From: a virus | Length of the DNA: 39,370 nucleotides | IMG/VR virus record: IMGVR_UViG_3300045988_022530 | Span: 1 to 39,370 of that record | Direction: 5' to 3' (one strand) | Notes under the pieces: model-generated | What the model was told of the DNA's origin: nothing | Seen by the model: the letters and a program-made list of their open reading frames with translations, nothing else | The model's database searches: none | Shown here: positions 1,588 through 39,030 of the stretch, piece by piece | How positions within the stretch are numbered: the first letter of the stretch is position 1 | How the letters are laid out: each line of letters begins with the position of its first letter | Program-made: the position numbers and the translations under genes

Positions 1588-1630
1588 TGGTCCGAGTGAG
1601 AAGATTCGAACTTCCGGCCTCTTGAACCCC
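1588..1630 (-). other. 3'-terminal fragment of a tRNA gene (T-arm, acceptor 3' strand, discriminator, CCA); probable attP core
   Basis: The minus strand reads GGAAG-TTCGAAT-CTTCT-CACTCGG-A-CCA, with a canonical T-loop. No complementary 5' acceptor strand (CCGAGTG) lies within 100 nt upstream, so it is not a complete tRNA. Confidence 0.7.
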
Positions 1631-1702
1631 ATTCATACGAGAATGTAGTGTTTTCAATGCTTTGCTGGTTTGGAGTTTGAAACGAGTTTGAAATAGGATT
1701 TT

Positions 1703-10643: not shown

Positions 10644-11507
10644 ATGGCATGGATCGAGCTGCACCAGACGCTGCCGACGAACCGCAAGACGATGCGCTTC
10701 AAGCGGCTGCTGAAGATCAAGACGCCGCAGGCCGTCGGCCATATGTGTATGCTGTGGCTCTGGGCAATCGACAACGCGCCGGACGGGGATCTGTCTCCGT
10801 TCGGCGCGGACGAGATCGCGGAGGCCGGCGGCTACACGGGCAAAGACCCGCACGCATTTGTGGACGCACTGGTCGGAGCAGGGTTCGTGGACGACGACGG
10901 CACATCCCTGATGATCCACGAGTGGTATGACTACGTCGGCAATCTGGTGGACAAGCGCGCGATCACCAAGGCGCAGAACCGCGAACGCGCGCAGAGATAC
11001 CGCGACAAGCGCAAGCAAATGAGCGTGACGGAAAGCGTGACGGAGCGTGACGATGTAACGCGGCGTAACGCTGACGTAACGCGTGACGCGAGCGCACGCG
11101 CAGCGTTACGTAACGCCGACGTAACGACCCTATACAGTACAGTACCGTACAGTACCAATACAGTACCCTGTATTTCTGAAGAAAGAAAGGTAAAAGAAAG
11201 AAGCCCGGAGGTGCAGCCTGTGACCGACGTGACGCCTCCGGAAGCTGTCCGGCCTGACGTGCTGGAGACGAAAAACAGGTTGGTCGTGCAGGCGGATATG
11301 CCGAGGGGCCGAAAGCTGGACGAACTGCCGGAGGGGATGCGCCTTGCAGACCTGCCATTTATCAAGCTCTGGCGCAGCAAGGGACGCGACGTGCGCACGG
11401 GCACGGTGACGCTGGCCATTGATGCGTACTTGCGGGAGCGGCCTCCGGAGACTGCGGCGGTGACTGCTGAGACCGCAAAGGCGGGTGAGGCGCGTGTCGA
11501 GCGGTAG
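10644..11507 (+). CDS. Replisome-organizer / replication-initiator-like protein containing the putative origin
   Basis: The N-terminal MAWIELHQTL...MLWLWAIDNAPDGDL resembles phage replisome organizer N-domains. The central low-complexity VT-rich stretch is encoded by DNA iterons. Confidence 0.6.
   Translation: MAWIELHQTLPTNRKTMRFKRLLKIKTPQAVGHMCMLWLWAIDNAPDGDLSPFGADEIAEAGGYTGKDPHAFVDALVGAGFVDDDGTSLMIHEWYDYVGNLVDKRAITKAQNRERAQRYRDKRKQMSVTESVTERDDVTRRNADVTRDASARAALRNADVTTLYSTVPYSTNTVPCISEERKVKERSPEVQPVTDVTPPEAVRPDVLETKNRLVVQADMPRGRKLDELPEGMRLADLPFIKLWRSKGRDVRTGTVTLAIDAYLRERPPETAAVTAETAKAGEARVER
11021..11205. repeat. Putative origin of replication: iteron arrays plus a purine-rich tract inside the organizer gene
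   Basis: Nine GT[GA]ACG hexamers start at 11025, 11037, 11047, 11055, 11065, 11076, 11083, 11110 and 11121. There is a 14-bp palindrome GCGTTACGTAACGC (11103-11116). TACAGTACC starts at 11138, 11148 and 11159, plus TACAGTAC at 11133. The tract GAAGAAAGAAAGGTAAAAGAAAGAAG follows. Confidence 0.6.
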
Positions 11508-28893: not shown

Positions 28894-31800
28894 ATGACAG
28901 TCAAGAAAGCAGCAATCTCCATTGGCGATTGGCTCAAGAGCACGGGATTCTCCGCCGAGAAAACGCTTGCTTCGGCGCAGGAGCAGCGGAAAAACCTGCT
29001 GCAGCAGATGGACAACGCGAATGCATCGTATCTAACCGGCGAGAATCGCGGCGCGCTGCAGAACGCATTTAGCAACTATCAGGCGACCATGAACGTGCTT
29101 CGCGGCGCCGGCTATGACACCGGAAATGACGTCGACGTTCTGCGCAGAGCCGTGCACTCGTCCTTCGACTTCCAGAACCAGTTCAAGGACCAAGACGACT
29201 TCAATGTGTCGTATGCCTACCCGAAGAAATACAAGGGCAAGACCCGCACGGACGTGAATGCGGCGCTCGCGCAGCTCAAGAACACGCCGGGGGCCGAGGC
29301 GGAATATGACTGGCTGAACAAGAACCAGATGAATTACTGGTCTGCGGACGAGCTGAAGGCGCAGATCGGCGCGTGGCAGAACGAGATTTCCGGCATCGAA
29401 CGGCAGCGCCGGAATATGCCGCGCATGGCAGCTGGGAGCACAGACGCAGACTATGCCAAGCGGCAGCAGGAGGCGCTCGCGCTCTCGGGGCAGATCGATG
29501 AGCGAAAAGCGAAGATCGGGAAAGCGCAGAGCCTGCTCACGCGGAAGACCTACGATGACGAGATCAGCAAGTGGGACACGCAGATGCAGAGGGCGCTCTC
29601 TGACTACAGCAAGGCGCTGAGTGTGAGCGAGAGCGCGAACACGGAGATGGCGATGGCCGGAAACTCCGCATTTGTCGTGCAAAACAGCGACTACGCCAAA
29701 AACGCGCGCAACACGGTGCGCAGCTTCGAGCAGCAGCTTCGTGATTACGGCTACAGTGACCAGCAGATCAACGGCATCCGCAGCTATGCGCTCACGCAGC
29801 AGCACGCAAACGAGGCTGCGGAAATGGCACAGCAGGTCGCACAGGAGGCCAAGGAGCATCCGTGGCTGGCCTCCGCCATGTCTGTCGGGACAAATATGAT
29901 GGCCGGAGCGGGTGCGCTCGACATCGCTGCACAGAATGCGCTGAACGGGACGGACCCGTTTACGGGCGAAAAAATGGCCGTCGACCGCTATACGAAATCC
30001 ATGGTGCCGAGCACGGTGACGAACACCATCCGCGGGAGCGTTTCCGAGGACATGAGCGGCATCGGGTCGTTCCTGTACAACACCGGCATGAGCATGGCAG
30101 ACAGCCTGGCAACGCTGGCCATCGGCGGCGCGACCGGCCTGCACGGCGCGGCGGATGTGATCCTCGGCGGCGCGGCGGCATCTCAGGCAATCACGGATGC
30201 GTATGACCGCGGCGCTTCTGACTCGCAGGCCATGTCGGTCGGCCTGCTCTACGGAACGGCCGAAGCACTGTTCGAGCACATCAGCCTGGACAAGCTGCGT
30301 ATGTTCCATACGTCGGCGGCCGCCGGGAAGAAGACCGCGAAGACGCTGGTTAAAGATATGCTCAAGCAGAGCTTTGTGGAAGGCAGCGAGGAAGTCTGCA
30401 CGGACATCGCAAACGTCATCTCCGACGCGATCGTGATGGCCGACAAGAGCGAGATCAACCAGACGATCGCCGCCTATCAGGCAGACGGCATGAGCGAGGA
30501 CGAGGCAACGCGCAGGGCGTGGCTTGACTGGCTCGGCCAGACGGCGCAGGACTTTGCTGGCGGCATGATCTCCGGCGGCATGATGACCGGCGGTGACATG
30601 GCGCTCAACGCCGGGATGCGAAACGCGAATTACCGCGAGACCGGCCGGCAGATCACGGCCAACGACTACGCGGACATCCTCCGCCGCGCTGCAGAGGAAA
30701 GCGGCGACGAAAACATCCGGAAGCTGGCTGGGAAGAAGCAGACAAACCGCAACACCGGCAAGCTCTACGAGGCGACACAGGAAGCAAATCTCACGCAGGC
30801 GGTCTCTGACCGCCTGGGTGCGCTCGGCACGCCAGAAAACGACGTGCAGGAGCTGACCGGCCTCGTGGTCAAGCAGATCAAGGGGCAGGAGCTGACGGGC
30901 AAAGAACAGCGGAAATTTGACGCCAGCAAGCAGGCACAGCGCGCGGCGAGCGAGTATGCGTCCCTGTTCACGCGGGATGCAGACCGGACCACGAACGCAT
31001 GGGCGCGCAGCCATATGCGTGACGCAGCCGAGCTGGAGCGCAACGCGATCTATGGCGGGGCACGCAAGACTGACGCAGGGCAGGCGCAGACACATCAGGC
31101 GGAGAAAAACGCCGAGGTGCAGGTAAACGGTGAGACCGCGCAGGTGCAGGCGCTTCGATATGACCAGGAGAGCGGCAGCGTGGAGCTGTCCGTGAAGGCC
31201 AAAAACGGCGATGTGCAGCGTGTTTCCGTGAAGGACGCCAAGCTGCCGGAGGGCACGCGCCTACTCGCCGAGAGCGCGGAAAAATACGGCGAGACCGCGC
31301 CGCAGATGTACGCCAACTACCAGAACGGGCAGGACGTGGAGCGCTACGCAAGCGCCTACGAGGTGGCATACTCTTACGGACGCGCTGGCGTGAAAAACTA
31401 CGCCGTGCTCGAGAACAGCGGCGCAGCATCGTATCTGACACAGGAGCAGCGGAAATTCGCCTACGAGACCGGCCTTGCCGCGGCGCGCAGGGAATCGGAC
31501 GCAAAGAGCGCGGCGGCCAAGAGCAGCGAAATTCAGGCCGGTAGCGTGACGCTGGAAGGCGGAAAGCTCGGAAACGTGACGCTCGCCGCCGTGAACACGG
31601 CCGGCCTGACGCGCAAGCAGACGGCGTCGATCGACGTGGCACGCAAGGTGGCCGAGGCGACCGGCGTGAACGTCGTGTTCTTTGAATCTCGTTCGGATGA
31701 GAGCGGGCGCTATATCGGCATGAACGGCGCATACCGCGATGGCACGATCTATCTGGACGTCAACGCAGGGAAGAACAACGTGGACACCGGCGAGACGGCC

Positions 31801-34800
31801 ATCCTGAAGACGATGTCGCACGAGCTGACGCACTTCATCCAGCGCAACAGCGGCCAGTATGAAGCACTGAAGGAGTTCGTGGCGAACCATGTGCTCGAGA
31901 GCGGCGACAGCATCGAGCGCCTTGCCCAGCAGAAGATCGACAACGACTCGACCGGCGAGCTGACGATGGACGGCGCGATGGACGAGGTCGTGGCCGATGC
32001 GTGCGAGATGATGCTGCGCAACACCGAGGCCGTGCAGCGGCTGGCGAATGAGAACCGCAGCCTTGCCGAGAAGATCCGCGACTGGATCGGGGATTTTGTC
32101 AAGAAGCTGCGTGCTGCGTTCAAGGGAGACCGCGCGACGCACGACGAGGCGAGAGCCATGCTCGACCGCATGGTGGAGCTGCAGAAGATCTGGGACGATG
32201 CGCTGGTGGACGCGGCGAAGGTGAATGCGGGGCGCGCCGGGGAGATTGCAAGCAACGGCGTGCAGGAATCGTCTCGCGGGAAGTACTGGCGGCCTGACCT
32301 GAATCAGCAGGAATGGTCGCTTTTGAACCGGCGAATGGGAAAAGAACTCGACAGCGGCAAACAATATCTTGACGAATCCACAAAGTGGCTGTACGCTGAA
32401 GAAAAGGGTGTGAAGGTGTTCGCCTTGTACGGGGTGGGAGATGGTACTGAGGCGACCACACTGTATGCGGTCGGCGGAAAACAAGCCGCGCTGCAGAATG
32501 CGAATATTGCAGAATATGTTGAGAGGAGCAGAGAATATGACAGAGATGGACGATCTGTTGATTCGTGGGTTGAGTTGCTTCGGCGTAAGAAAGGGAGCAG
32601 GGGCCGAAATCTATCTCAGGGTCAAGGGCCAACCGGAGCTTCAGGAACGGCTCATGGACTATATGGCGGATCACCGCGAGGCAACGGCGGAAGAACTTCT
32701 GGACGTGGCTCGCAGAATCAGCGCAAAGTAAAAGAGCAGTTCTCCCTCCGCGAACCGGTGGAGCAGGTGCGTGATCTTGTCGCCGTGCATGGCCTGACAG
32801 AGCAGAACCTGCGTGGCGCACTCGCGCTCGGCGGATTGCCGATGCCAAGTATCGCGGTCGTAAAAGCTGTGCAAGGGCACAGCAAGTACGGCCCGATTTC
32901 CATGGTGTTCGGCAGGGAGAGTATTGACCCGCAGGTTGACCCCAGGAACAAAATCTACGGCGGGGATGCCTACACGCCGACGGCACCGGCGGTGGAATAT
33001 CCGGTGAACTACGACCGGATGCGGACCGTCGAAAAACGGCTCGCCAGACTGAGCGGGAAGATTGCGGGCGGCGTATTCCGAAACGGCAGCGCCATGCAGC
33101 GTGCAGGCGTCGGTGAAGAGAGCGGTATGAGCGCGTCGGAGCTGGCGGACAAGCTCTCGCGGGACGACAGCGTGCGCGCGGCCTATCTGGCCGATCGTGG
33201 GGAAACGCTCGAGCCGGTCATGCAGGCAAAGGAATTCAACCGATACGGCAATGACGCGCTGGCAAAACTGGTGCAGAAAATCGGCGTGCAGGAGCTCGCC
33301 CACGTTGAAGCGGACATGGAAACCGGGGACTATCAGTCTGCGCGAGAGATCGAAGACACGGTGCGCCAGATTATCCGCGACAGCTACGAGGAACAGCATC
33401 GCAGATTTCTGGACCGAAAGCCGGAACTGAAGGAAAAGCGGCTTGACCACTTCATGGATAACAATGTCCATACTTCCACGGTTGAGAATTTCATCCGAGA
33501 TGCGTGGGCGTTTTACGAAGATCAGGGTGCTACAGCGGACGAAGTAGACCGATTGGCTACCAGCGACAAATTGCACGAGGCGACGGATACTGAGGACGTG
33601 AAGGCATGGCTGCTGCCACAGCTGAAATCTGTTTTTGGCGAGCCCGGCATTTACAACGGGAAGGAGCGCTATACCGCCTCTGGAGACAGACGCAGCTTTT
33701 CGCAGCTGCATTGGGAATACACGCTCGAGAACATTGTGAGTGCGATGGCGGAAACCCAGAAGGAGCGCGGCGGCCAGACGTGGGGGACGTCGGCAGGAGC
33801 TATGCAGGCTGTCAGCGCCGAGGACTTTTCCAGCATTGATGAAGTGAAGGCCGCGAGCGGCAGGCTCGGCAAAGCGGAAGGCGAGCAGTATGAAGCGGCG
33901 AAGAATGCTGTTGAAAACCTGATCGATCAAGCGACACGCGCCGTTATGCGAGAGACGCGGCCGCACGCCGACAATTCGTTCGATGAAAGAGAAATTATCG
34001 GCGATGTTATGATGGAAGCGGCGAAGGGCAAGCGGACGGCGCGGGCCATTCAGCAGGCTTTTGCGAAAGAGGGATATTCGGTCAGTGAAGAAACTGCTCG
34101 CCGGATTCAAGAAGTGTATAAGGCGGCGGCTGCACTTCCGACGGAATATTTTGAGGCGAAGCCGCAGAGAGCGGTCGGCTTTGACGAGGTGAAAGTGGCC
34201 ATTGTGCCGGACAACATCAACTCCGAGCTGAAAGAGCAGCTTGAAAATATGGGAGTGCCGGTGCAAGTGTACCGCGCTGGTGACGAGGAGCAGCGTCTGC
34301 AGATACTGAACTCGGATAAATCGTGGCAGTTTTCCGAGCGTGACGACACGCGGACAGACCGCGACGTGCTTTCCGACGCCGCGGACGGCGACGCGGCAAA
34401 CGTGCGCGAGATGGAGATGCTGCGCGAGTACCGGGAGAAGCTGCAGAAATACAGCTCGCTCACACGGAGGCTGGAGCAGCAGCGCGAGCTTGCGCAGAAC
34501 GCGGAAAGCAAGGAGGAGCGCCTGAAGGCGAGAAACCGCGCGGACAACCTGGCTGCGCAGGTGAGCCGAGCGGACGCGCAGCTCACGCGGATGCAGAACG
34601 CGAAACCGCTGCGCGAGCTGGTGGCGCGCGAGCTGAAGACGCGCGACAGCCTGGCTAAGGAAAACGCCATGCTGCGCGACCGCGTGGAGTATTTGCGTGG
34701 GCAGATGCAGCGCACGAAAGAGGCAACCACAGACCCGAAAGCCGTGCGGGAAGCCGCAAAGGATATCATTGAGCGGACCGGCAGCAGCATCGGCGTGGAC

Positions 34801-37800
34801 GAGGTGATGAGCCAGCTGCAGGAGCTGTACGACGGCATTGCCCGCGCGACCGGAGACAACGGGCTTACCTACGCGGAGATTCAGCAGCGCGCGGACGATC
34901 TCGCACACGACATTTTGAACGACGTGACTGCCGTTGACGACACGATGTACCGCGAGTATGAAGACCTGCGGAGGTATTTCAAGGGTCAGCAGCTCGTCGT
35001 GTCCGCGGCTGACCGCGGGGAAATTCCGGACTTCGGAGATTTCCGACGGAGAAACATGGGCCGAATGCGGCTGAAAAACGGCGAGCGGACGAACGTTGAC
35101 CAGGTTTACGCAGAGCTGAGTGAGCTGTACCCAGAATTCTTTGACCAGAACCGCGAGAGCCAGCCGAGCGACCAGCTATACCGCATTGCCGATGTGCTGG
35201 ACGCGGTGTACTCCGTGAACGAGTACAACCCAAACGCGCAGTATATGCGCGAAGCGACGCAGAGTGTGAGCAACGAGATCCTTGAGCAGTTTTTCGACCT
35301 GCCGCAGCAGAGAACGTTTGCCGACCGGCAGGCGAAGAAGGACGAACAGCAGAAGACGCACTACCTCAACCAGATCAACGAGCTGCGCAAGGCCAATGAC
35401 ACGCGCATCGCGGAGCTGCGGGCGCAGAACCGCAAACGGCTGCAGGAAGCCATAGCAAGAGAGCGCGAGAAACGCGACGAGCAGATTGCGCGGCTGAAAG
35501 AGCACTATGACGAGCGGGACGCAGCCGATAAGGCACGTAGGGAGGAAAGCGCGGCAGTGGCGAAATACCGCCCGCGCATCGAGCAGAAGGCGAAGCGCCT
35601 GAGCGATTGGCTGCTGAAAAACAGCGACAAGGAACACATCCCGGAGCCGTTGAAGCTGGCGGTAGGCGAGTTCCTGGAATCCATCGACTTTACGAGTAAG
35701 AGGGCGCTGGACGGCGGCGCGCTGACGAAAAAGGACATTCGGCGTTCGCTCCGGTATACTGACCGGATGCAGAAGCTGCTGGACAGACTGCGCGGGCAGA
35801 ACGATGACGGGACGAACGACCTCGGACTGTATCTGGACATCCCGGATGGATTCCTCGAGGAGATGCAGAAGCACATCAACACTGCGTCCGACATCGTCAG
35901 CCAGAACCCAGGCGAGAACGTTGTAAACCGGATGAGCGGAGAGCAACTGCAGCAGCTCGACCAGATGCTCACGATCCTGACGCGCAGCATCCAAAACGCG
36001 AACAAGCTCAAGGCCAACGCACACTTTGAGACCGCACGGCAGGCGGCACAGGCGACGGTGCTGGAGCTCGACCGGCTGGGTCAGGCCAAAGGCAGAACGA
36101 AGGCTGGGGAAAAGGCGGCCGGTTTCTTCAACTGGGAGAACACGACGCCGTACTATGCTTTCCAGCGCTTCGGCGAGGGCGGCAAGGCGATCTTCGAGGC
36201 GCTTTCCGACGGCTGGGACAAGATGGCCTTCAACACGAAGGCGGTCATGGACTTCACGGAGCAGACCTACACGCCGAAGGAAGTGAAGGCGTGGGCAAAG
36301 GAAACGCACACGTTTAAGCTCGAGAGCGGCGAGAGCGTGAGGATGACGACCGCACAGATGATGGCGTTCTACTGCCTGTCGAAGCGCGAGCAGGCCGCCG
36401 GCCATCTGCTCGGCGGCGGTATGCGCGTGGAGGACATCCAGAACAGCGGGCGCAAGGAAAACGTCAAGCAGCCGGATCCGTTCCTGCTGACGCAGGAGGA
36501 CATCTCCGCGATCAATGGCGCGCTTACCAAGCGCCAGCGCGAGGTGGCGGACAAACTGCAGAAGTACATGAACGATCAGGGCGGCGCGTGGGGCAACCGT
36601 GTGTCGATGGAGCGCTTCGGATACCGCGCGTTCACGGAGGAGAACTACTTCCCCATCGAGACGATGGACTCCAACCGCGACGCGAAAGACCCTGGCGCGA
36701 AAGAGAACGACATGTTCCGCCTGCTGAATATGTCCGCGACGAAGAGCCTCGTCTACAAGGCAAACAACGCGCTCGTTGTACGCGACATCTTCGACGTGTT
36801 CAGCAACCACATGGCTGACATGGCGAAGTATGACGCGCTGGCGCTGCCGATCCTCGACGCGATGAAGTGGTACAACTACCGCGAGAAGCAGAAGCTCGAG
36901 AACGGCCACGTGCTCACGACGACGGTACAGCGGTCGATTGAAAAGGCATACGGAATGGATGCCAACAAGTATTTCACGACGTTCATCAAAGACCTGAACG
37001 GCGTGAACGAAGGCGGCCGCGGGGAGGGCTTCGCAAAGAAGATGCTCTCCAACTACAAGGTGGCGGCCGTGGCTGCGAACCTGCGCGTGGCGCTGCTGCA
37101 GCCGACGGCGTATGTGCGTGCGGTCGGTGTGATGAGCCCGAAGTATCTCGCAAAGGCGTTTACGGAGGGAAAGAGCGCCTACAAAGAGGCAGAGGCTAAC
37201 AGCGGCATCGCGCTGTGGAAGCAGATGGGCTTCTACGACACGAACATCGGTAGGGGTGTCCGCGACCAGATCAAGAACGCCGGGACGTGGAAGGACTCGA
37301 CGGTCGAATTCCTTATGAAAGGCGCAGAATGGGCAGACCGGCTGACGTGGGGGCGCTTGTGGAACGCCTGCAAAGCGGAGGTGCGTGACAAGCAGAAACT
37401 GACCGGCGACGCGCTGCTGAAGGCGACGGCCGAACGCTTCCGCGAGGTCATCTACTCGACGCAGGTGGTGGACAGCACGATGACACGCAGCCAGGCAATG
37501 CGCGCGACCGGTGTGTACGGTGCTGTATCTACGGCCTTTATGTCGGAACCGACGCTGTCGTACAACCTCTTGCTCAAGGCGTACACGGACTACACGGCTG
37601 AGCTGCGCGCGACCGGCGACAAAAAAGAAGCGTGGAGAAACGCAAGCGGGAAAATTGCAAGAGCGCTGGCGACCTATCTTGTGTCGGCGGCTGCTTCGGG
37701 GCTTGCCGAATCAATCGTGGACGCCTGCAGAGACGACGACGAGTACGCCACGTGGCTGGAGAAGTACCTGAGCGCGCTGATCGGCGCGAAATACAAAGAC

Positions 37801-39030
37801 GGGAAGTTTTCCGGCGTGAACCCGCTTGAAAGCAACCTGTTCATGGACGTGGATATCCTCTCGAAGCTCCCGATCCTCAAGGATTTCATGTCGATGATCT
37901 CCGGGTACGAAAACGACCGGATGGACACGGAATGGATCAGCAACCTGATCGATGCGTATCGGATCTGGGACGAGACGATCAAGCTGGAGACCGGCGAACT
38001 GGACGAGCCGACGGACGTGACGTACAACGGCAACATGACGCTGTACGGAAAGATCTACAAGACACTCAAGGCCGTCTCACAGGCGACCGGTCTGCCGATC
38101 AGCGCGGCGAGCCGCGAGGCAGTAACGCTCTGGAACACCATCGCCGGAGCTGTCGGCAAGGGCGACGAGTGGACGATCCACACCTATGACTCCGGGCCGG
38201 AGAGCCAGATCAAGTACGGTCTGATGGACGGCTATCTCACGCGCGAAGAGGCGCAGCAGCTGCTGGTCGACAAAGGACTCGCGGACGACGAGAATGAAGC
38301 GTACTGGAAGGTTGACAAGTGGGCGACCGGCGAAGGAAAGTACGACGAGGCGCTCGCTGCGGTGCTCAGCGGAGACAAGGCCGCCTTCGATGCGCAGGCC
38401 AAGGAGCTGAAAGAGCACGGCATCGGCGAGAAACAGCTGCAGTCTGCGGTACGCTCGCAGGCGAAGGAGTGGTACGTCGGCGACGACGACGGAAAGCGCT
38501 CGATCACGAAGGAGCAGGCGCTGAAGATCCTGCAGCAGTACGGAGGGAAAGACGCCGACGAGGCGCAGAAACTGGTGCAGAAGTGGACGTGCGAGGTCGT
38601 GACCGGCACGGACTACGACGACATCAAGGATCTGTATCTCGATGGGAAGCTCACGCGGTCTCGCGCGGTAGATATGCTGACGCGCTACGGCGGGATGAAG
38701 CAGGAGGACGCGCAGAACAAGATCGACACGGCGGACTTTGTGAAGGCACATCCGGAATGCGACGGCATCAGCGTTGAGGCCGTGCAGAAGTACAACGAGC
38801 AGGCGAAACCGGCCGGTATGGACGCGGGGACGTTCTGGGAAGCGTACCAGTTCAAGAACGACGCAAGGACGACGCGCGACAGCAACGGCAAGGCCATCAG
38901 CGGCCAGGGAGCAATGGACAAGGTCACTGCATATATTGACGGGCTGGACCTTAGCAGAGAGCAGAAAAACGCGCTGTTCCTGTGCTTCTACAGCCAGACC
39001 TCGCTCAATAAGATCCGCTGGAGCAATTAA
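28894..39030 (+). CDS. Giant multi-domain virion protein (3378 aa), polyvalent-protein-like, with a zincin HExxH module
   Basis: Uninterrupted 10,137-nt ORF with SD GAGGGG. Gly-rich hydrophobic segments, HELTH at 31819-31833, long coiled coils and C-terminal tandem repeats. It is the last gene of the virion operon. Confidence 0.85.
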   Translation: MTVKKAAISIGDWLKSTGFSAEKTLASAQEQRKNLLQQMDNANASYLTGENRGALQNAFSNYQATMNVLRGAGYDTGNDVDVLRRAVHSSFDFQNQFKDQDDFNVSYAYPKKYKGKTRTDVNAALAQLKNTPGAEAEYDWLNKNQMNYWSADELKAQIGAWQNEISGIERQRRNMPRMAAGSTDADYAKRQQEALALSGQIDERKAKIGKAQSLLTRKTYDDEISKWDTQMQRALSDYSKALSVSESANTEMAMAGNSAFVVQNSDYAKNARNTVRSFEQQLRDYGYSDQQINGIRSYALTQQHANEAAEMAQQVAQEAKEHPWLASAMSVGTNMMAGAGALDIAAQNALNGTDPFTGEKMAVDRYTKSMVPSTVTNTIRGSVSEDMSGIGSFLYNTGMSMADSLATLAIGGATGLHGAADVILGGAAASQAITDAYDRGASDSQAMSVGLLYGTAEALFEHISLDKLRMFHTSAAAGKKTAKTLVKDMLKQSFVEGSEEVCTDIANVISDAIVMADKSEINQTIAAYQADGMSEDEATRRAWLDWLGQTAQDFAGGMISGGMMTGGDMALNAGMRNANYRETGRQITANDYADILRRAAEESGDENIRKLAGKKQTNRNTGKLYEATQEANLTQAVSDRLGALGTPENDVQELTGLVVKQIKGQELTGKEQRKFDASKQAQRAASEYASLFTRDADRTTNAWARSHMRDAAELERNAIYGGARKTDAGQAQTHQAEKNAEVQVNGETAQVQALRYDQESGSVELSVKAKNGDVQRVSVKDAKLPEGTRLLAESAEKYGETAPQMYANYQNGQDVERYASAYEVAYSYGRAGVKNYAVLENSGAASYLTQEQRKFAYETGLAAARRESDAKSAAAKSSEIQAGSVTLEGGKLGNVTLAAVNTAGLTRKQTASIDVARKVAEATGVNVVFFESRSDESGRYIGMNGAYRDGTIYLDVNAGKNNVDTGETAILKTMSHELTHFIQRNSGQYEALKEFVANHVLESGDSIERLAQQKIDNDSTGELTMDGAMDEVVADACEMMLRNTEAVQRLANENRSLAEKIRDWIGDFVKKLRAAFKGDRATHDEARAMLDRMVELQKIWDDALVDAAKVNAGRAGEIASNGVQESSRGKYWRPDLNQQEWSLLNRRMGKELDSGKQYLDESTKWLYAEEKGVKVFALYGVGDGTEATTLYAVGGKQAALQNANIAEYVERSREYDRDGRSVDSWVELLRRKKGSRGRNLSQGQGPTGASGTAHGLYGGSPRGNGGRTSGRGSQNQRKVKEQFSLREPVEQVRDLVAVHGLTEQNLRGALALGGLPMPSIAVVKAVQGHSKYGPISMVFGRESIDPQVDPRNKIYGGDAYTPTAPAVEYPVNYDRMRTVEKRLARLSGKIAGGVFRNGSAMQRAGVGEESGMSASELADKLSRDDSVRAAYLADRGETLEPVMQAKEFNRYGNDALAKLVQKIGVQELAHVEADMETGDYQSAREIEDTVRQIIRDSYEEQHRRFLDRKPELKEKRLDHFMDNNVHTSTVENFIRDAWAFYEDQGATADEVDRLATSDKLHEATDTEDVKAWLLPQLKSVFGEPGIYNGKERYTASGDRRSFSQLHWEYTLENIVSAMAETQKERGGQTWGTSAGAMQAVSAEDFSSIDEVKAASGRLGKAEGEQYEAAKNAVENLIDQATRAVMRETRPHADNSFDEREIIGDVMMEAAKGKRTARAIQQAFAKEGYSVSEETARRIQEVYKAAAALPTEYFEAKPQRAVGFDEVKVAIVPDNINSELKEQLENMGVPVQVYRAGDEEQRLQILNSDKSWQFSERDDTRTDRDVLSDAADGDAANVREMEMLREYREKLQKYSSLTRRLEQQRELAQNAESKEERLKARNRADNLAAQVSRADAQLTRMQNAKPLRELVARELKTRDSLAKENAMLRDRVEYLRGQMQRTKEATTDPKAVREAAKDIIERTGSSIGVDEVMSQLQELYDGIARATGDNGLTYAEIQQRADDLAHDILNDVTAVDDTMYREYEDLRRYFKGQQLVVSAADRGEIPDFGDFRRRNMGRMRLKNGERTNVDQVYAELSELYPEFFDQNRESQPSDQLYRIADVLDAVYSVNEYNPNAQYMREATQSVSNEILEQFFDLPQQRTFADRQAKKDEQQKTHYLNQINELRKANDTRIAELRAQNRKRLQEAIAREREKRDEQIARLKEHYDERDAADKARREESAAVAKYRPRIEQKAKRLSDWLLKNSDKEHIPEPLKLAVGEFLESIDFTSKRALDGGALTKKDIRRSLRYTDRMQKLLDRLRGQNDDGTNDLGLYLDIPDGFLEEMQKHINTASDIVSQNPGENVVNRMSGEQLQQLDQMLTILTRSIQNANKLKANAHFETARQAAQATVLELDRLGQAKGRTKAGEKAAGFFNWENTTPYYAFQRFGEGGKAIFEALSDGWDKMAFNTKAVMDFTEQTYTPKEVKAWAKETHTFKLESGESVRMTTAQMMAFYCLSKREQAAGHLLGGGMRVEDIQNSGRKENVKQPDPFLLTQEDISAINGALTKRQREVADKLQKYMNDQGGAWGNRVSMERFGYRAFTEENYFPIETMDSNRDAKDPGAKENDMFRLLNMSATKSLVYKANNALVVRDIFDVFSNHMADMAKYDALALPILDAMKWYNYREKQKLENGHVLTTTVQRSIEKAYGMDANKYFTTFIKDLNGVNEGGRGEGFAKKMLSNYKVAAVAANLRVALLQPTAYVRAVGVMSPKYLAKAFTEGKSAYKEAEANSGIALWKQMGFYDTNIGRGVRDQIKNAGTWKDSTVEFLMKGAEWADRLTWGRLWNACKAEVRDKQKLTGDALLKATAERFREVIYSTQVVDSTMTRSQAMRATGVYGAVSTAFMSEPTLSYNLLLKAYTDYTAELRATGDKKEAWRNASGKIARALATYLVSAAASGLAESIVDACRDDDEYATWLEKYLSALIGAKYKDGKFSGVNPLESNLFMDVDILSKLPILKDFMSMISGYENDRMDTEWISNLIDAYRIWDETIKLETGELDEPTDVTYNGNMTLYGKIYKTLKAVSQATGLPISAASREAVTLWNTIAGAVGKGDEWTIHTYDSGPESQIKYGLMDGYLTREEAQQLLVDKGLADDENEAYWKVDKWATGEGKYDEALAAVLSGDKAAFDAQAKELKEHGIGEKQLQSAVRSQAKEWYVGDDDGKRSITKEQALKILQQYGGKDADEAQKLVQKWTCEVVTGTDYDDIKDLYLDGKLTRSRAVDMLTRYGGMKQEDAQNKIDTADFVKAHPECDGISVEAVQKYNEQAKPAGMDAGTFWEAYQFKNDARTTRDSNGKAISGQGAMDKVTAYIDGLDLSREQKNALFLCFYSQTSLNKIRWSN
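32537..32731 (+). CDS. Nested 64-aa ORF in an alternative frame inside the giant gene
   Basis: SD GAGAGGAG lies 8 nt before the ATG. Product MTEMDDLLIRGLSCFGVRKGAGAEIYLRVKGQPELQERLMDYMADHREATAEELLDVARRISAK. Hand-counted GC3 is about 64% in this frame against about 39% in the giant-gene frame. The giant frame is G/R/S low complexity here. Confidence 0.5.
   Translation: MTEMDDLLIRGLSCFGVRKGAGAEIYLRVKGQPELQERLMDYMADHREATAEELLDVARRISAK

Follow-up and report, generated by a model that had tools for sequence, protein, structure and literature searches.

A small open reading frame (ORF) with its own Shine-Dalgarno sequence (SD) lies within a giant phage gene, and the question raised by this locus is which of the two overlapping frames selection acts on, and what the other one is for. 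The stretch analysed here (the window) comprises 39,370 nt, positions 1-39,370 of the IMG/VR record IMGVR_UViG_3300045988_022530, and is the genome of a temperate Clostridia phage. Its giant late gene (28894..39030, plus strand, as delimited from the ORF list and translation) encodes a 3378-aa polyvalent, that is multi-effector, virion protein. The nested gene (32537..32731, plus strand) is wholly contained within this longer ORF of the same strand, in frame +1 relative to it. It runs from an ATG at 32537-32539 to a TAA at 32729-32731 and is preceded by the SD GAGAGGAG (32521..32528, plus strand), with an 8-nt spacer to the ATG. Its product is a 64-aa protein with a predicted four-helix fold, an assignment based on translation, homologues, substitution rates and AlphaFold. 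The original prediction, made from the letters of the window, had proposed a real nested gene with its own SD at a place where the host frame degenerates to a low-complexity linker. All its coordinates, the +1 frame and the 64-aa translation were found to be correct, and the proposal itself is upheld by the results below. We consider it very probable that these 195 bases code in two frames, with the nested gene constrained and translated by internal initiation, the giant frame used as a spacer, and the small gene being a resident that was absorbed by its neighbours.

The two frames can be distinguished by their composition. Over the whole giant gene, the guanine-cytosine (GC) content at the three codon positions is 0.61 / 0.41 / 0.79. 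Over the nested segment it is 0.62 / 0.62 / 0.38 in the giant frame and 0.63 / 0.385 / 0.63 in the nested frame, a recount in agreement with earlier hand counts at the third position (39% and 64%, respectively). When read in the giant frame, the segment (32536..32733, plus strand; aa 1215-1280) gives a basic linker rich in G, R and S. Residues G/R/S/N/Q/P/T make up 68% of this peptide, its isoelectric point (pI) is 11.7 and its predicted local distance difference test (pLDDT) is about 30 in a model built from a thin alignment. The nested peptide is of ordinary composition, with a pI of 5.3 and 34% hydrophobic residues. Composition and pI thus confirmed the low complexity that had been attributed to the giant frame across this segment. 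A scan of compositional phase along the 10-kb giant gene, in 150-nt scanning windows, detected a single sustained switch, to phase +1, in those starting at 32404-32659. This lone switch supports the earlier statement that no other off-frame ORF of the giant gene looks protein-like. A marginal blip of three scanning windows, with phase +1 slightly above the giant frame, was also seen at 34024-34204, where it overlaps a 43-aa ORF starting with TTG (34061-34192); it is far weaker than the nested-gene signal.

Related loci were gathered first from the neighbourhoods of small-protein homologues and further, through the domain just upstream alone, from viral, genome and metagenome collections, giving about 125 loci with 81 distinct sequences. 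This upstream domain, here called X, comprises 85 aa of the giant frame (aa 1130-1214; 32281..32535, plus strand) and is supported by hidden Markov model (HMM) matches and by the ratio of nonsynonymous to synonymous differences per site (pN/pS). Its conserved core (32281-32484) reads KYWRP...EW.LL.RR...DE.TKW.YA.EKG..VFALYG.GDGT.AT.LYAVGG, and the variable tail that follows the core bears the SD of the nested gene.

Selection in each frame was assessed by pooled Nei-Gojobori (NG86) estimates, expressed as pN/pS or as the corresponding ratio of substitution rates (dN/dS). Over the overlap segment, dN/dS was 0.14-0.29 in the nested frame, indicative of purifying selection, and 1.2-1.7 in the giant frame over the same bases. 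The pattern was reversed in the control, domain X, where pN/pS was 0.18-0.47 in the giant frame and about 1.0 in frame +1. The dN/dS contrast and this control together imply that selection on protein sequence changes frame at the nested gene. When sorted by nested codon position, differences followed the order third > first > second in every divergence bin above 10% (for example 0.388 / 0.23 / 0.131), and the third position of the giant frame was the least variable in the segment. Amino-acid identity was higher in the nested than in the giant frame in 1870 of 1891 pairs. In the comparison of homologues proposed with the original prediction, it is therefore the nested frame that is conserved and not the giant-frame peptide, as judged by these pairs and by dN/dS. 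An independent protein of 64 aa is encoded in frame +1 and is subject to purifying selection of the ordinary kind.

These data bear on the possibility that the nested ORF is a non-functional by-product, its conservation resulting from the giant-frame linker or from a constraint on DNA or RNA. With 79% GC at third positions, long off-frame open runs are indeed common, and several of 90-166 codons are present in the giant gene. Nevertheless, substitutions follow the nested frame, in which nearly all pairs are the more identical, while SD and start are conserved across different giant-frame residues. In addition, the fold is predicted with confidence and compositional phase switches only here in the giant gene. 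We regard such a by-product as very unlikely, and the frame-specific substitution data already contradict it. A sequencing or assembly artefact would require two compensating indels, between which a domain normally read in the giant frame had been shifted. Only the abruptness of the compositional change would suggest it. At least 11 independent assemblies at 98-99% identity share the layout, the same frame relationship is observed in more than 100 independent contigs from many samples (45-99% identity), and the indels between variants all consist of whole codons. An artefact is thus hardly conceivable.

In the giant frame, only openness appears to be maintained. This frame is stop-free across the segment in all 12 representatives below 75% nucleotide identity, and the product of the per-sequence probabilities of such openness, obtained by synonymous resampling, is 10^-11.8, a value that presumes independence of the lineages. 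The giant frame is thus kept open and otherwise unconstrained, which argues that the polyvalent protein reads the small gene out of frame as a spacer. Through the nested DNA, X would be separated by a basic, G/R/S-rich stretch from the effector domain that comes next, which is PBECR5 in the window.

Alternatively, the giant ORF might not be translated across the segment, the open outer frame being functionless and the locus consisting of three genes: a gene A ending near X, the small gene, and a separate gene B from PBECR5 onwards. Exactly such a split was observed in L127 (736-3345) and L128, the only layout found in which giant-frame stops are present at both edges of the small gene. In these two loci the TAG of the upstream gene overlaps the SD of the small gene, the giant frame is closed again by a TAA where the small gene ends, and ART-PolyVal is called as a gene of its own downstream, from a GTG. 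Openness of the giant frame in one sequence is, moreover, not improbable (P = 0.26). However, the frame is open in all 12 divergent lineages, with the joint probability given above, and in 68 of the 70 distinct units ascertained through X, the exceptions being L072 and a contig end. A and B always share the same frame, and no SD-preceded start follows the TAA in the window. In addition, both halves of the giant protein are matched by phrog_22978, a family represented by one profile of 3513 positions. Three separate genes are therefore improbable here. The split layout of L127 and L128 may be ancestral or a decayed derivative.

Initiation signals were assessed in 62 distinct variants of the nested gene. 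An SD core (GGAGG, AGGAG or GAGG, with only AGGA or GGGG in a few variants) precedes the start in nearly all of them, at a spacing of 5-12 nt in all but one. The start is ATG in 59 variants; the other three, which represent one variant type, have GTG after GAGGAGG. The SD is kept through differing giant-frame residues at the same spot (ER, KEE, NGG, MEG, LED, KEY), so that the nested gene's own initiation signals are conserved in its relatives. A nested-frame stop is located 12-27 nt upstream of the start in 43 of the 62 variants, and the nested ORF persists intact in loci whose giant frame, upstream of it, is absent or is disrupted by a frameshift or a stop (L009b, L010a, L072, L123 and L124). 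Since SD and start are conserved, stops lie upstream in the nested frame, the ORF outlasts a broken giant frame and no promoter was found nearby, we infer that ribosomes would start on the nested gene internally, from its own SD and ATG within the late giant mRNA, to produce the small protein.

SD-like sequences can also stimulate frameshifting, as in prfB and dnaX. The conserved SD might accordingly promote a programmed +1 frameshift, yielding a truncated giant protein that ends in the 64-aa domain and no free small protein. In the window, no stop interrupts the +1 frame over the 123 nt before the ATG, as such an event would need. In addition, P0059, a 131-aa protein from the representative library, is an in-frame fusion of X and part of the giant-frame linker to the nested frame. 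However, P0059 is devoid of the first helix of the small protein and is most simply explained by a 1-nt indel within the overlap. A general frameshift fusion is unlikely because of the upstream nested-frame stops in 43 of the 62 variants, often placed between X and the SD. No slippery motif is conserved, only SD and ATG or GTG at initiation spacing, and in the loci listed above other than L072 the ORF is undamaged despite a broken or missing giant frame upstream. The upstream stops and the absence of a conserved motif beyond SD and start speak against the third reading put forward in the original prediction, an alternative C-terminus produced by frameshifting, to which we give very little credence compared with internal initiation.

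Every copy of X was accompanied by the nested gene. Each of the 135 X matches in the approximately 125 loci is followed, about 55 nt later, by a nested ORF in frame +1. Among the 70 distinct units ascertained through X, 69 carry an intact nested ORF with SD and start, and the remaining one is cut by the contig end. Two units are present within one intact giant gene in L056, L092 and L119, and units stand before ART-PolyVal, PBECR5, LPD3-like and other domains. X and the embedded gene thus form one recurring module, located ahead of different effector domains. A comparison of giant genes with and without the 195-nt segment, as originally envisaged, found nothing to compare, since no X copy without a nested ORF occurred among the 135 matches. 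A mobile insertion (intein, intron or homing cassette) was rejected on the same grounds and also because the segment is not in frame and has no Rfam match. No family match to X was obtained in Pfam, PHROGs, NCBIfam or the PDB, where a profile search gave only trivial Kelch-blade matches to 'LYAVGG'. A word-indexed protein search with X returned 5 short proteins only and no giant ones. In the INPHARED phage set and the PLSDB plasmids, neither the module nor the nested gene was matched.

The small protein belongs to a wide family. A word-indexed search retrieved 30 stand-alone homologues of 49-72 aa (61-72 aa for all but two fragments), with 54-98% identity, and a profile search of 1.84 billion cluster representatives gave 126 clusters at 50% identity, almost all of 63-75 aa. 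AlphaFold, using a 24-sequence alignment, modelled the nested protein as four helices with a pLDDT of 93.6. The only structural match, with a TM-score of 0.91, was found among the predicted viral structures of BFVD and is an annotated, though uncharacterised, 64-aa protein of an uncultured gut phage. Against the PDB, the sequence-profile search was empty and Foldseek returned nothing below E = 1. The sole NCBIfam match was to TIGR02574, an addiction-module family, with E = 0.06 and 13 bits for a cutoff of 31.9. The distant family members L123, L126 and L129 are likewise located within an open giant frame; an X or X-like domain is present upstream in L126 and L129 and missing in L123.

Several points weigh against a constrained gene read through as a spacer. 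In the single sequence of the window, double openness is not significant. By synonymous resampling, the probability of an open giant frame given the nested protein is 0.26, as mentioned above, and that of an open +1 frame given the giant peptide is 0.54; significance therefore rests on the comparative data, for which lineage independence is presumed in the joint probability. A scan for sigma-70-like promoters or terminators near the nested gene found none, so that its expression separately from the giant mRNA is unsupported. Nothing usable was retrieved for the nested protein from Pfam, PHROGs or NCBIfam, and its function has to be deduced from context. X was modelled as a helix, three strands and a helix with low confidence (pLDDT 43, 6-sequence alignment), too poor for a structure search. 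Finally, the parts exist as separate genes in L127 and L128, showing that read-through is not obligatory.

How could a small gene come to lie inside a giant one? The embedded frame looks the older of the two, since its composition by codon position is normal and its product, predicted to fold well, has a broad family of relatives; the enclosing frame looks derivative. The small gene was probably absorbed by fusion of neighbouring effector genes and not created de novo inside a linker. A resident gene located after X would have been enclosed when the effector genes on either side were joined into one polypeptide. The original prediction had offered, as its first two readings, a small gene overprinted on a linker and a small gene situated between two genes that were once separate, the outer frame staying open. 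Both fit, and they are not mutually exclusive: the small gene's frame is constrained and the giant frame only stop-free, and L127 and L128 have the three pieces separate.

The classic example of an out-of-frame gene wholly within another phage gene is Rz1 in Rz of lambda (spanin genes), both products of which are sequence-constrained subunits of one complex. As with Rz1, a small +1 ORF with its own ribosome-binding site and start is located inside a larger phage gene of the same strand, and both frames are kept. Unlike Rz, the host frame here is only a stop-free spacer (with the giant-frame dN/dS of 1.2-1.7 given above). The host is moreover a 3378-aa polyvalent virion protein, with the embedded gene in an X module present up to twice per gene and followed by varied effectors. 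There is no sequence or fold relationship between Rz1/Rz and the nested gene. In viral overprinting, overlapping genes are born de novo inside an existing frame (PMC8227390). The present case is similar in that two frames share one DNA, one product being ordinary and the other of low complexity or disordered. The polarity, however, is reversed: it is the embedded frame that looks older, is predicted to be well folded, is codon-adapted and has a wide family, and the enclosing frame that is odd and unconstrained. This reversal fits a fusion by read-through across a resident gene, of which L127 shows the unfused layout. Embedded genes are thus a kind of arrangement already known, from lambda Rz1 in Rz and from viral overprinting (PMC8227390). 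In the literature searched, this gene family, its modular tie to X and its occurrence in polyvalent proteins are not described. Judged from the substitution patterns, this is a genuine embedded gene, conserved over deep divergence within a polyvalent phage protein and with the roles of the two frames inverted.

It represents an unusually clean, comparatively backed case of a fully embedded gene in a tailed phage, with inverted polarity, and adds an unrecognised small protein and domain X to the polyvalent virion proteins of gut Clostridia phages. It also suggests a route by which effector genes may fuse into polyvalent proteins while keeping a small gene between them. Since gene callers forbid long overlaps on the same strand, members of the family (the 126 clusters) are annotated only in loci with a broken giant gene and go unnoticed where a phage genome is intact. 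The locus offers experimental handles: changes of SD or ATG that are silent in the giant frame, and stops in a single frame that are silent in the other.

What the small protein does can be approached through its neighbourhood. X is the sole invariant neighbour and the small gene lies on the same mRNA, which favours, tentatively, a protein that works together with the X module or acts upon it; it could, for instance, be a partner in folding, packaging or processing. The main alternative, an immunity or antidote factor against a toxic part of the injected polyvalent proteins, would protect the producer cell, lysogens or bacteria bearing orphan copies. Polymorphic toxin systems, reportedly the subject of Zhang et al. 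2012, carry toxin-tip and immunity cassettes with orphan arrays. The present loci resemble them in having a small gene right after a domain, tandem chromosomal arrays, varying between strains, in which a truncated upstream fragment is paired with a small gene, and conserved flanks around a variable middle. In line with immunity, the small gene comes straight after one domain and ahead of domains of toxin type (PBECR5, RNase-like, and ART), a placement shared with immunity and antitoxin genes. In chromosomal loci such as L007, L009, L010, L079, L115 and L088 (fba-pfk), units of [X fragment + small gene] with different subtypes form tandem arrays that vary between strains and resemble orphan toxin-tip/immunity arrays. 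The small ORF also outlives a broken giant frame in some remnants, and a weak match to TIGR02574 was obtained. This match is, however, far below its cutoff, and survival in remnants is a biased observation: as loci were found through X or the small gene, that is through the module itself, we do not claim preferential retention of the small gene. Unlike polymorphic toxin cassettes, the immunity gene would sit inside the toxin ORF and not past its stop, and it does not covary with the downstream effector. X is itself short and better conserved than the small protein, nothing shows that it is toxic, and no promoter of the gene's own was detected. Taken together, immunity is rather doubtful.

Two expectations of a cognate immunity role were not borne out. 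When small-protein subtypes were tabulated against the downstream domain, N0, N1 and N2 were each found ahead of several clusters unrelated to one another, PBECR5 and ART-like clusters among them (N0 stands before PBECR5, ART and three other clusters); in the absence of covariation between subtype and effector, cognate immunity to PBECR5 or ART is unsupported. Membership in a known immunity or antitoxin family found no support either, for want of a Pfam or PHROG match or of a significant PDB match in fold or sequence. More speculatively, X and the embedded gene might constitute a mobile neutraliser system, in which the small protein would bind the conserved X of injected polyvalent proteins. 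The orphan, strain-variable arrays (fba-pfk, BPL-GreA and the cotJC element) would then be retained by prophages and bacteria for immunity to the effector cargo that superinfecting phages inject. We hold this to be unlikely; if true, it would mean an immunity gene concealed inside the weapon's own reading frame.

Several related loci are chromosomal. At a site between genes for fructose-bisphosphate aldolase and phosphofructokinase (fba-pfk; L007-L011 and L088), one to three tandem [X fragment + small gene] units are present, with subtypes differing by strain; L009 also holds a MuF_C gene and an integrative element there. In L012-L016, a 5.3-kb element (about 6800-12100 in L012) interrupts a cotJC-like gene for Mn-catalase; it encodes a large serine recombinase and an amino-acid ABC transporter and also contains one X + small-gene unit. 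The element is similar to those that are inserted in sporulation genes and removed when the cell sporulates. In L001 (9490-10499), the last 135 nt of the integrase gene (1710-1844 of the window) are joined directly to the giant gene at 32159, matching to 33035. This arrangement, in a bacterial chromosome, is a prophage remnant with about 30 kb deleted. X and the nested gene are still present in it, as are 100 aa of PBECR5, and it recurs in several samples (L002, L047-L052). A chromosomal remnant at BPL-GreA (L003-L006) has, downstream of its unit, a 74-nt stretch (10746-10819) that is 92% identical to 34338-34411 of the giant gene and falls within the remnant's long open giant-frame ORF (L003 9526-11223).

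The giant gene itself is located downstream of the structural genes for terminase, portal and capsid. Its PBECR5 nuclease-like effector domain (KEQFSLREP...; 32734..33420, plus strand; aa 1281-1509; Pfam PF18814, E = 2.7e-63) begins immediately after the nested stop codon, and its homologues carry ART-PolyVal, LPD3 and ADPrib_exo_Tox domains. Because of the late position after structural genes, the phrog_22978 match and PBECR5, the product is a polyvalent protein in the sense of Iyer et al. 2017 (PMC5512222). It resembles those proteins in being a giant multi-domain product encoded among late virion genes, with PBECR5 here and ART-PolyVal and LPD3 in relatives. It goes beyond them in its domain X and small protein, neither of which is in Pfam. 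PMC5512222 proposes that metallopeptidases process polyvalent proteins into separate units; a search of its text for 'overlapping', 'frameshift' and 'linker' gave zero occurrences. The translation alone shows an HExxH motif (HELTH, aa 976-980; 31819..31833, plus strand) upstream of the module; a zincin or metallopeptidase region may lie there, although it has no Pfam match. On the minus strand, antisense ORFs of 687, 407, 745 and 577 aa lie within the giant gene at 29032-36909. Such long ORFs are expected given the 79% third-position GC, and nothing suggests that they are coding.

Elsewhere in the window, an endolysin gene occupies 1-813 and a tyrosine integrase gene 1703-2851 on the minus strand. 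The other genes include a C5 methylase, YqaJ/RecT, Dam, a large terminase, a P22-like portal and a capsid protein. ARAGORN found no complete tRNA in the window, and no Rfam family matched it. Where the integrase gene has just ended, on its 3' side, the sequence reads like the 3' portion of a tRNA gene (…TGGTCCGAGTGAGAAGATTCGAAC…; 1588-1635, minus strand) and is probably the phage attachment core (attP). The same 48-nt stretch shows 100% identity to chromosomal sequence in three loci (L012 18452-18499, L015 and L016). A GC-rich, perfectly paired hairpin with a T run after it (1421-1456; aaacgcctgagagaac…gttctctcaggcgttttt) resembles an intrinsic terminator and is located where the lysis-side genes end.

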